This document shows, one piece after another, positions 17,654-21,748 of a DNA stretch of 64,000 bases. The stretch comes from Escherichia coli (lineage in GTDB: Bacteria; Pseudomonadota; Gammaproteobacteria; Enterobacterales; Enterobacteriaceae). The stretch lies in NCBI RefSeq assembly GCF_044324875.1, contig NZ_CP172185.1; one strand, 5' to 3'. The notes under the pieces were generated by a model. The model was given only the letters and a program-made list of their open reading frames with translations. It did no database searches and was not told the origin of the DNA. Numbering within the stretch: position 1 is the first letter of the stretch; every line of letters starts with the position of its first letter. The position numbers were made by a program, and so were the translations under genes.

Positions 17654-18986
<1,333 letters not shown>

Positions 18987-19005
18987 AACTTAGTTCGTTT
19001 TAAAG

Positions 19006-19030
19006 ATTCTCCAGACAGTGTCTGGAGAAT
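19006..19030. repeat. 25-bp palindrome ATTCTCCAGACA-G-TGTCTGGAGAAT between convergent yhcH and yhcG; probable bidirectional terminator and member of a local palindromic repeat family
   Basis: Perfect 12-bp arms around a 1-nt centre, read directly. Confidence 0.6.
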
Positions 19031-19045
19031 TCGAAACCGCTGAAA

Positions 19046-20134
19046 TTAACGGCGTCTATAGCCTTCCTCTAGCACCGCCTGTGTTCGAACGAGTTCATCT
19101 GCGAGTCGTTTCTCATCAGGTAGTTGCATCTTATATTCGCTTGCCAGAACGGTGTTAGGCAAACCTGCCAGAGCATAATGCGCTTCGCCGGCTCCTTTCT
19201 CTGCACAGAGAATCAGACCGATGGGCGGATTTTCATCCGGTAGCGTCCAGTGATCTTTGGCGTAGTTGAGATACATATTCATCTGTCCGGCATCGCTATA
19301 GCTGAATTTGCCCACTTTTAGATCGACGATTAGCAGGCAGCATAAACGGCGGTGGAAAAACAGCAGATCGACACGAAACCAGTTATCATCAATGCGTAAC
19401 CTTCGCTGCCGACCAACAAAGGCAAAATCATCCCCAAGTTCCAGCATGAAATCCATCAGGTGGTTGATCAGCGCCTCCTCGAAATCAGATTCTGAATATT
19501 CATCTTTCAATTCCAGAAATTCGAGCACAAAGGGATCGCGTATCGCCTGCTGCGGAAGAATATGCGTCTCGGTAGGAGCGTGTTGTTGCAGCATGGCTGA
19601 TTTGTCATGTGACAGTAGTGTTCGCTCATAAAATTGGGTCGCAATTTGCCGCTCTAGCTGGCGAACAGACCAGCCACAGCGGAGCGTCTCTTTTTCATAA
19701 AAGCTACGAGCGTCAGCGTTTTTAACAGAAAGCAAACGGACGTAAGTGGACCAGGGCCGGGGGAAAGATTTGGCAGACAGCGTCTGCCAAATCTTTCCCG
19801 ATGGGAATTCTGCAGACGGTGTCTGCGGAATTTCAACATGTTGAAAAAAGAGGTAAAAAAGTCTCATTTGGCGCAAGTTTTTTGCAGAGAACCCACGCTT
19901 ATACCTTAGACATAAATCCTTTGATAGTCGCTTGATTAGCTGCGCACCATACGCAGCCCTGGCCTCGCCACCTTGTTCAAATTCGACAATTCGTCGGCCA
20001 ATTTCCCAGTATGTCGCGGTCATCAGCGCGTTAACGCTACGTACCGTTTCCGTCCGGGCGCTATCGACCAGGTGAATAATACCGTCGTGGATTTGCTGGT
20101 AGCCTGTTGAGGTTCTCTCTGAGAGCGATTCCAT
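19046..20134 (-). CDS. yhcG: YhcG, DUF1016 protein with predicted PD-(D/E)xK nuclease fold
   Basis: 362-aa ORF MESLSERTSTGYQQIHDGIIHLVDSARTETVRSVNALMTATYWEIGRRIVEFEQGG... Confidence 0.85.
   Translation of the reverse strand: MESLSERTSTGYQQIHDGIIHLVDSARTETVRSVNALMTATYWEIGRRIVEFEQGGEARAAYGAQLIKRLSKDLCLRYKRGFSAKNLRQMRLFYLFFQHVEIPQTPSAEFPSGKIWQTLSAKSFPRPWSTYVRLLSVKNADARSFYEKETLRCGWSVRQLERQIATQFYERTLLSHDKSAMLQQHAPTETHILPQQAIRDPFVLEFLELKDEYSESDFEEALINHLMDFMLELGDDFAFVGRQRRLRIDDNWFRVDLLFFHRRLCCLLIVDLKVGKFSYSDAGQMNMYLNYAKDHWTLPDENPPIGLILCAEKGAGEAHYALAGLPNTVLASEYKMQLPDEKRLADELVRTQAVLEEGYRRR
19761..19832. repeat. Two adjacent palindromic units inside the yhcG reading frame, related to the 19006-19030 palindrome
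   Basis: 19761-19799 perfect 18-bp arms around AGC (GGGAAAGATTTGGCAGAC/GTCTGCCAAATCTTTCCC); 19805-19832 imperfect copy GAATTCTGCAGACGGTGTCTGCGGAATT; shared core CAGAC(A/G)G(C/T)GTCTG. Confidence 0.6.
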
Positions 20135-20317
20135 TATCTGTCCCTTTATATGGCGCTGCGTTGAATAATGGAATCAGCTATACGCCGGGCATCTACCGGT
20201 AACAATCCAGATGTGCGTATTACATTGGTTTTCTTCAGATTATGCGAGGCGCTTTCCAGTACGAAAGGAGAATTTCAGCGCCGACTCTTTTCTGAGGAGG
20301 CGGCGCTGGGACAGAGT

Positions 20318-21748
<1,431 letters not shown>

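Follow-up and report, generated by a model that had tools for sequence, protein, structure and literature searches.

A base-paired coding unit conserved in yhcG and other DUF1016 nuclease genes of Bacteria and Archaea

The Rickettsia palindromic elements (RPEs), reportedly described by Ogata et al. in 2000 as in-frame selfish palindromes in protein-coding genes, are ~100–150 bp long, dispersed in many unrelated genes of one genus and regarded as mobile. Repetitive extragenic palindromic sequences (REPs) and bacterial interspersed mosaic elements (BIMEs) are short imperfect hairpin palindromes, single or clustered, which are found between convergent genes in hundreds of copies per genome, have RAYT transposases and are hot spots for insertion sequence (IS) insertion and rearrangement. 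In the type III toxin–antitoxin (TA) systems ToxIN, CptIN and TenpIN, direct RNA repeats of ~36 nt lie upstream of the open reading frame (ORF) of a ToxN-type endoRNase toxin, with a terminator between them. The matS site (GTGAC-RNY-GTCAC) is a 13-bp dyad-symmetric sequence bound by dimeric MatP. Here, a palindromic unit is described that lies in and beside yhcG, a gene of the DUF1016/YhcG family, in a 64,000-nucleotide stretch of Escherichia coli DNA (the window; contig NZ_CP172185.1 of assembly GCF_044324875.1). The conserved entity in this unit is intrastrand complementarity together with a few fixed nucleotides, namely the core, an A–T pair at the stem base and an R-S-Y centre, and the peptide I-x-Q-T-x-S-[AGD]-[EKQ]-[FLS] that it encodes is a translation by-product in a disordered linker.

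The locus in the window has the E. coli-type order nanE-nanK-nanQ(yhcH) / yhcG / gltD. The original prediction had placed one palindrome beside yhcG and two inside it as members of a single family, and all three were recovered at the positions it gave:
19046–20134, minus strand: yhcG, a 362-aa ORF with DUF1016_N (PF17761) and YhcG_C (PF06250), a PD-(D/E)XK nuclease.
19760–19843, minus strand: inter-domain linker segment of YhcG (residues 98–125), made up of units and spacers of 12–14 nt.
19006–19030, no strand: U1, a stand-alone unit with perfect 12-bp arms ATTCTCCAGACA / TGTCTGGAGAAT around one base (G).
19761–19799, no strand: U2, perfect 18-bp arms around AGC, with the canonical 25-nt unit inside it at 19768–19792; it encodes GKIWQTLSAKSFP.
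19806–19832, no strand: U3, 12-bp arms AATTCTGCAGAC / GTCTGCGGAATT with one mismatch; it encodes EIPQTPSAEF.
U1 is located in the 59-bp spacer between the convergent nanQ(yhcH) and yhcG, 15 bp 3′ of the yhcG stop codon, and U2 and U3 are translated in frame, as had been proposed, to give the peptide EIPQTPSAEFPSGKIWQTLSAKSFPRPW. The kinship of the three was borne out by a common 25-nt pattern, ATTnnnCAGACnnnGTCTGnnnAAT, whose exact matches start at 19006, 19768 and 19807 (three sites compared with 0.02 expected in the window), and by the identity of U3 to U1 at 21 of 25 positions. The 13-nt core CAGACRGYGTCTG likewise has three sites compared with 0.17 expected; chance is therefore rejected as the source of the palindromes. 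No fourth site of the 25-nt pattern was found in the window when two mismatches were permitted. A covariance model built from the units (R1) matched U1 at 19004–19032 with 40.4 bits (E = 7e-11), U2 with 41 bits and U3 with 37 bits. As single-stranded DNA, U1, U2 and U3 fold with −10.3 (z = −6.2), −20.9 (z = −9.7) and −9.9 kcal/mol, respectively, the z scores against shuffles ranging from −6.2 to −9.7, and the folding of the yhcG mRNA, which had been suggested as a check, gave −45 kcal/mol and z = −6.9 for the linker RNA (19740–19860, minus strand).

A representative search returned 23,855 DUF1016 relatives at E <= 1e-3, the linkers of which often hold one to three peptides of the above form. 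Among 80 DUF1016/YhcG homologs sampled at the DNA level from Proteobacteria, Acidobacteria, Planctomycetes, Cyanobacteria, Bacteroidota, Firmicutes, DPANN and other archaea, all 80 carry unit-like peptides or variants at one junction, just before LSWSHY. The palindrome occupies the DNA between the helical N-terminal domain and the nuclease half, which starts with LSWSHY; one to five copies stand in tandem, the commonest period being 39 nt (13 codons). In minimal one-unit genes the unit is fused directly to LSWSHY, and at least 8 of 11 arm pairs are kept in all 80 genes. The model R1 finds matches in nearly every one of these loci between about +230 and +450 of the gene and seldom at other places, the exceptions being tandem paralogs (L068, L069), U1 of E. 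coli, a five-unit array (L037) and a few upstream copies (L052, L053). Examples are gattttgcagacACTgtctgcaaaatc in a betaproteobacterium, ccaatttgccagacACTgtctggcaaattg in a Woesearchaeote, gattttccagtcAGTgactggaaaatt in a member of the Bacteroidota, where a compensatory change in the core turns the peptide into QSVTG, and gatttccgagacAGTgtctcggaaatt, which encodes ISETVSRKF. DUF1016 genes of Bacteria and Archaea thus have the unit as a deeply conserved, intrinsic component, and E. coli has done no more than amplify it. The idea that the units are an addition lengthening the yhcG linker beyond the DUF1016 norm had to be abandoned because at least one unit is intrinsic across the 80 bacterial and archaeal homologs; the finding is more general than was first thought, and its central point, the conservation of base pairing rather than of peptide, had been missed.

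The consensus of the unit is rATT-nnn-CAGAC-RSY-GTCTG-n′n′n′-AATy, with 12-bp arms and a 3-nt centre, in a unit of 25–29 bases. At 87 sites encoding QTxS, 9.07 of 11 arm pairs are formed, compared with 5.33 in a synonymous-codon null in which the peptides were re-encoded with the codon usage of each gene. In an alignment of 90 units, 84.5% of the cells of the 12-pair helix are paired (72.5% after shuffling, 24–40% when the register was slid), cells in which both partners have changed number 146 compared with 69 after shuffling, and the covariation score is 0.309 compared with 0.109, a value reached by none of 500 shuffles; the three outer variable pairs are GC, CG, UA and AU in similar numbers. 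Codon use inside the units departs from that elsewhere in the same genes, Ser being encoded by TCT in 95% of cases (19% elsewhere), the x codon ending in G in 95% (26%), Thr being ACR in 97% (49%) and Gln being CAG in 90% (54%). Furthermore, A stands in column 3 of 89 of the 90 units, where I or K is encoded, and T in column 27 of all 90, where the residue is F, L or S; the CAGAC core is present in ~90% of units, and the centre triplet is purine-S-pyrimidine (ACT 27 and AGT 18, AGC 13 and GCT 12, ACC 8 and GGT 3). In 23 genes without QTxS, a junction palindrome of 9–11 out of 11 pairs persists with a different core and an unrelated peptide (LDAVRRE, ATQCVAN, SYPMGSQ, SAAPRES, ESLIRK or STLSNE), while control windows of the same genes mostly give 6–8 and occasionally 9–10 pairs. 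The palindromes are ctcgacgcAGTgcgtcgag in the gene with LDAVRRE (L089) and cgctacacAGTgtgtagcg in that with ATQCVAN (L065), and L046, L030, L032/L051, L040 and L071 behave likewise. Since the arms covary, the codons are forced and a perfect palindrome with another core is kept under non-QTxS peptides, the peptide follows the nucleic-acid structure. Units of one gene differ from each other at nnn (TGG/CCA, CTG/CGG, CGC/GCG), and each is internally complementary; recognition of a duplex by a symmetric dimer alone is therefore insufficient, which implies that a strand pairs with itself, in a hairpin or cruciform. A role in DNA or on both strands is somewhat favoured by the symmetry that the centre triplets and the conserved ends show under reverse complementation.

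Like an RPE, the yhcG unit is palindromic DNA translated in frame whose peptide, here in a disordered linker, is tolerated as a by-product, but it is 25–39 bp long, belongs to one protein family at one fixed position and covaries across two domains of life. The occurrence in many unrelated genes that characterizes RPEs was not found: in exact-pattern scans, 24 of 41 sites in viral contigs and, among the matches listed, 92 of 135 sites in metagenomes lie in DUF1016 ORFs, no second host protein family was identified among the metagenome and viral sites listed, and a synthetic multi-unit peptide gave no scored matches in a protein database. U1 and a unit of E. coli Nissle 1917 resemble REPs and BIMEs in lying between convergent genes, and the unit resembles them as a site of rearrangement and IS insertion; REPs, however, are extragenic, numerous and of another consensus, whereas the unit is mostly intragenic and, in E. 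coli, essentially confined to yhcG. The three sites in 64 kb are all at yhcG, and a 50-nt U1 query matches E. coli genomes at 2 places in the median and at 6 at most; such a median agrees with matches at the yhcG locus only, namely to U1 and to the intragenic cluster. Judged by eye, the unit ATTnnnCAGACnnnGTCTGnnnAAT is AT-ended, and the GC-rich stem of REPs is missing from it. The original judgement that the palindromes are not REP, enterobacterial repetitive intergenic consensus or IS ends is upheld, the high-copy dispersal of REPs and BIMEs being absent, and the genome-wide search that it had called for gave a divided answer: the motif does occur elsewhere, in other DUF1016 genes, but it is not dispersed in E. 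coli. With type III TA arrays the unit shares a tandem period (~36–39 nt), the link to a nuclease and the defence contexts, which prompts the idea of repeats as a ligand; in contrast to those arrays, the units are palindromic hairpins inside a PD-(D/E)XK ORF, usually in one or two copies, and the period alone is similar. The core architecture of matS (5 + RNY/RSY + 5) is also strand-symmetric, but its sequence is another one, and the outer arm positions of the yhcG unit covary, which a dimer-binding site does not require. Unlike an integron attC site, by inspection, the unit has no GTTRRRY core and lies inside an ORF. No Rfam 15 family matched the locus, the best scores being those of spurious miRNA and CRE models (17–22 bits compared with gathering scores of 100), and a search with eight other loci returned nothing relevant; full-text literature searches on yhcG, DUF1016, PDC-S02 and the unit sequences or peptides turned up no account of the palindromes. 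The family-wide covarying coding hairpin thus appears to be undescribed in the literature and Rfam searched. DUF1016/YhcG is a very large uncharacterised nuclease family, and a hairpin that dictates part of the protein sequence offers a testable way into the questions of what its members recognise and what controls them; in addition, a nucleic-acid structure is seen here with unusual clarity to constrain protein sequence in both prokaryotic domains.

Within E. coli, 5,426 complete genomes were surveyed, in 4,467 of which the yhcG region was matched. The commonest allele is 39 bp longer than that of the window (1200 compared with 1161 bp; coding sequence of 1128 nt, 375 aa), and alignment shows that the extra 39 bp are a third unit, TTAATTCGCCAGACACTGTCTGGCGAATT, which encodes EIRQTVSGELTPLG and is placed after U3 on the plus strand; the window allele lacks it through a 39-bp deletion. 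The suggestion that the difference between 362 and 375 aa amounts to one 39-bp unit was therefore correct, and the length polymorphism in steps of 39 bp (13 codons), for which an alignment of alleles had been proposed, is real: protein clusters of 375, 362 and 349 aa correspond to three, two and one units, respectively. Alleles of 370, 382 and 391 aa also occur in these clusters, in which a divergent set of units, a case of read-through and deletions inside the gene are found. Alleles with two units have more than one origin, with independent crossover points: U3 is intact in the window, the left arm of U3 is combined with the right arm of U4 in a hybrid unit of strain GDSC2239PM, and the junction in strain SCPM-O-B-8794 differs from both. 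A deletion of 80 bp between units produced a frameshifted yhcG pseudogene. The array is accordingly a coding tandem repeat of variable number, with a 39-nt period, head-to-tail copies, one-, two- and three-unit alleles and independent deletions. Tandem Repeats Finder reported nothing in the window or in the three-unit allele because the copies are only ~75–83% alike over 23–40 nt and the array has just two or three units. The original prediction had named identical yhcG alleles and a motif confined to this gene as what would reduce the palindromes to ordinary coding sequence; since yhcG varies in length and the motif occurs in other genomes, the view that they are coding sequence palindromic by chance fails. 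The gene is known as LSPA-6 length marker yhcG, used to type O157:H7 lineages (PMC3514354, PMC8733641); in these papers it is an amplicon-length marker only, for which a 2-bp deletion allele is reported and palindromic units are not described. The marker and the present array have the length polymorphism of yhcG in common, the units here varying in 39-bp steps. For E. coli typing, the units explain yhcG as a length-polymorphic marker as well as the full, truncated and absent yhcG haplotypes with junctions at units. The locus CVN001 of multilocus typing by variable-number tandem repeats (MLVA), also a 39-bp repeat, was considered as the identity of the array and rejected; its primers are absent from the window and it is a different locus. 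Of the complete RefSeq E. coli genomes, none exceeds 97.8% identity to the yhcG region of the window (19046–20134), and none was found to carry precisely its two-unit allele, so that the source strain is somewhat divergent at yhcG.

An alternative haplotype in ~726 of the 5,426 complete genomes, including HS and O104:H4, carries a 470-bp single-copy segment in place of the C-terminal half of yhcG and U1, with its breakpoint inside U2. In B2-type genomes such as Nissle 1917, yhcG is wholly absent and one unit is kept in the 67-bp nanQ–gltD spacer:
L008 2986–3052, between the stop codons of the convergent gltD and nanQ: Nissle 1917 unit, a 15-bp perfect stem ATAAATTCGCCAGAC-AGT-GTCTGGCGAATTTAT.
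This unit is flanked by A/T runs (TTTATTG / TTATAAAA) and may now serve as a bidirectional terminator; U1 was not called as an intrinsic (Rho-independent) terminator, that is, a G+C-rich stem with a T-run, in a scan of 18900–20400. In Salmonella, yhcG adjoins gltD and has a single unit (10 of 11 pairs) with no external copy; therefore, the gene is ancestral, strains without it have lost it by deletion and the array arose by local amplification in Escherichia. U1 itself is a relic copy carried with a yhcG-like fragment:
18987–19045, minus strand: relic segment with U1 inside it, similar to yhcG where the N-domain ends and the first unit follows.
On the yhcG strand this segment reads FQRFRILQTLSGES, resembling the intragenic FFQHVEIPQTPSAEF, and 19006–19045 and 19807–19846 form a 40-nt direct repeat with 75% identity; the read-through allele P0026 (391 aa) extends into the segment. 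A degenerate unit upstream of yhcG (~20256–20280), which would make the gene unit-flanked, was undetected by R1 at E <= 1. As side observations, the 470-bp segment (L005 3531–4000 in E. coli B25FEP, the same in HS and O104:H4) encodes a 101-aa ORF annotated as 'transposase' (WP_000639208.1) that has no NCBIfam or PADLOC match, and yhcG is interrupted independently by IS2, ISApl1 (IS30 family) and IS1 in E. coli genomes (L007, L009, H24), the match of the IS1-bearing H24 to the window stopping at query position 810, within the unit region.

Sites outside DUF1016 ORFs lie, among the matches listed, in short or absent ORFs and are mostly non-coding or DUF1016 relics; many of them are clearly gene relics, and several stand-alone units carry DUF1016 remnants, YYFKLEYPVTQIRQTLSGKLT or ...EEFRLSWSHY. 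They are real units because their variable arms are mostly fully complementary, full nnn complementarity being found, among the matches listed, in 53% of them compared with 75% of in-gene units. The neighbours of stand-alone units resemble, by eye only, type I restriction–modification (R-M), AbiE and other defence genes. A two-core array pattern in viral contigs hit mostly unrelated tandem repeats, with only L100, L105 and L120 (DUF1016 relics) and L115 being relevant. In a Thermoleophilia metagenome-assembled genome (L037 117–313), five units spaced by 36–48 nt, one with a CGAC/GTCG core, immediately follow the stop codon of an unrelated gene (Gp37/Gp68-type by eye); no ORF explains this array, which is ~1 kb upstream of a DUF1016 gene having its own three or four units. 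In a type I R-M locus on a metagenome contig (L188 6058–8014), hsdS, a stand-alone unit with the relic peptide YYFKLEYPVTQIRQTLSGKLT, a GxxExxY-like gene and hsdM were recognised by eye; this looks like a DUF1016 gene truncated right after the hairpin and replaced by another small nuclease gene.

The gene that carries U2 and U3 belongs to the DUF1016/YhcG family, with an N-terminal DUF1016_N followed by the YhcG_C PD-(D/E)XK domain: PF17761 and PF06250 were found on close homologs (76–94% identity), the Salmonella ortholog has identical domains, and RefSeq names the orthologs yhcG / PDDEXK nuclease. YhcG is, by profile, a candidate defence protein of the PADLOC class PDC-S02 (PDLC04807, E = 3.1e-133, residues 8–357); NCBIfam assigned no name to it, and a PDB sequence search with it gave no match. 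In an AlphaFold model, residues 98–125 have a predicted local distance difference test score of 28–32 and no secondary structure, lying between the helical N-domain (4–98) and the middle helices (128–183). Enrichment of DUF1016 genes has been found beside programmed inversions and within type I R-M loci (PMC9881135). A yhcG deletion was reported to be synthetic-lethal in combination with hypomorphic alleles of dnaB, dnaN and parE, and its product is associated with HsdMRS and McrBC (PMC2672614); together with the PDC-S02 match, these data provide a context for a role as a structure-specific nuclease.

The best overall explanation, to which we assign a probability of roughly 0.55, is that the family-wide paired unit acts as a folded nucleic acid and is recognised by a co-travelling factor, most likely the encoded nuclease. 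An ancestral single unit, still present in Salmonella, was tandemly amplified in Escherichia, and recombination or slippage between units now generates the one-, two- and three-unit alleles (349, 362 and 375 aa), the frameshifts and the truncations that break at the unit. The unit may function when folded, as a DNA cruciform or single-strand hairpin or as a transcript hairpin, and could be recognised by a factor travelling with the gene, of which the encoded PD-(D/E)XK nuclease would be the likeliest. Recognition may lead to autoregulation in cis or to self-recognition of a potentially toxic defence nuclease, and as a side effect the structure could render the site fragile, recombinogenic and a hot spot for breakpoints. 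A bolder version, which we put forward tentatively, regards the hairpin units as the cognate ligand of the DUF1016 nuclease inside its own gene, an intragenic 'self' element (RNA or cruciform DNA) that would be bound or cleaved. If this were true, the unit would restrain a nuclease that is widespread in defence islands, or would mark the locus to which it belongs. Regulation on this principle is undescribed for defence systems, and it would account for the recombination breakpoints, for the variation in copy number and for the conservation of the unit all the way from archaea to E. coli. Several points weigh against recognition of a folded unit by the nuclease. About one-third of the exact-pattern units in metagenomes and viral contigs, among the matches listed, are outside detectable DUF1016 ORFs; the element can therefore persist without the gene. 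Sense-strand mismatches comprise 17 G·T and 44 A·C, an asymmetry explained by codon structure, so that the RNA and DNA levels are inseparable by it; it was tried as a discriminator between them and set aside as uninformative, being set by which transitions are synonymous. The AlphaFold model of YhcG is of low confidence (predicted template modelling score 0.36) and too uncertain for a fold comparison with junction- or hairpin-specific nucleases, and binding or cutting of the unit by YhcG, as well as formation of the hairpin in vivo, are points that we only infer. Template switching during replication (quasipalindrome correction) could, in addition, keep the symmetry without selection.

Among the rival explanations, an element acting at the RNA level is possible, although it is clearly less probable than recognition of the folded unit by a co-travelling factor. 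The hairpins of the yhcG mRNA would then act without a dedicated protein, either by pausing ribosomes for co-translational folding or by affecting mRNA half-life or processing in the manner of REP-type stabilisers; the strong predicted RNA structure (z = −6.9), the covarying pairing, the placement in a disordered linker, precisely where two domains meet, and a copy number that is free to vary would all fit. However, the CAGAC core (~90%), the invariant A–T at the stem base and the R-S-Y centre exceed the needs of a generic stable hairpin, the reverse-complement symmetry of the centre triplets suggests equivalence of the strands, and A·C mismatches, which disrupt RNA helices, outnumber G·U, though this count is confounded by coding. 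A doubtful alternative is a non-functional palindrome that perpetuates itself, its symmetry being kept by template switching in a tolerant linker and loss of the last copy being prevented because it would fuse or frameshift the domains. Relic and non-coding copies do stay perfect (U1, the 15-bp stem of Nissle and the L037 array), arms can grow, as in the 18 bp of U2, recombination yields hybrid units and the linker peptide is disordered. Yet symmetrisation preserves no identity, whereas the core, the stem-base A–T, arms of 12 and a centre of 3 are maintained all the way from archaea to Proteobacteria; moreover, at least 8 of 11 pairs are found in all 80 sampled genes, and relic units are, among the matches listed, less often fully complementary at nnn than in-gene ones (53% compared with 75%).

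The explanation closest to the original prediction, insertion, in frame in yhcG and beside it, of a small mobile palindrome akin to REPs, RPEs or miniature inverted-repeat transposable elements, is very improbable. It would account for the in-frame palindromes, the extra copy outside the gene and the stand-alone copies in other genomes and phage contigs, but the element is undispersed, with all three sites in 64 kb at yhcG and a median of two places in E. coli, several stand-alone copies are flanked by DUF1016 remnants and no transposase or RAYT partner was seen; its fixed codon-level position in DUF1016 genes of all phyla, including one-unit genes fused to LSWSHY, argues for ancestry rather than repeated insertion. 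Least probable of all, and already largely refuted, is selection of IxQTxSxxF as a protein-level repeat, for instance as a short linear or phosphorylation motif, with the palindrome being incidental. Q, T and S are indeed highly conserved in ~70% of genes, but synonymous sites are fixed to the pairing base, the palindrome persists under unrelated peptides, the residues flanking QTxS covary as pairing dictates (W-A, C-G, R-G, G-D, F-G) and non-coding copies exist. Domain shuffling at the hairpin was considered separately and is unsupported at this depth, the pairwise identities of the N- and C-domains being correlated (r = 0.71) with no strong outliers.

At the other end of yhcG, a perfect 11-nt inverted repeat was observed, GATTCCATTAT (20127–20137) / ATAATGGAATC (20165–20175), with its arms 27 nt apart; the left arm overlaps the yhcG start codon at 20134, and the right arm is ~30 nt upstream. 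This repeat could be a 5′ operator or hairpin. An antisense non-coding RNA, G0-10703, that overlaps the 5′ end of yhcG has been reported (PMC7967276).

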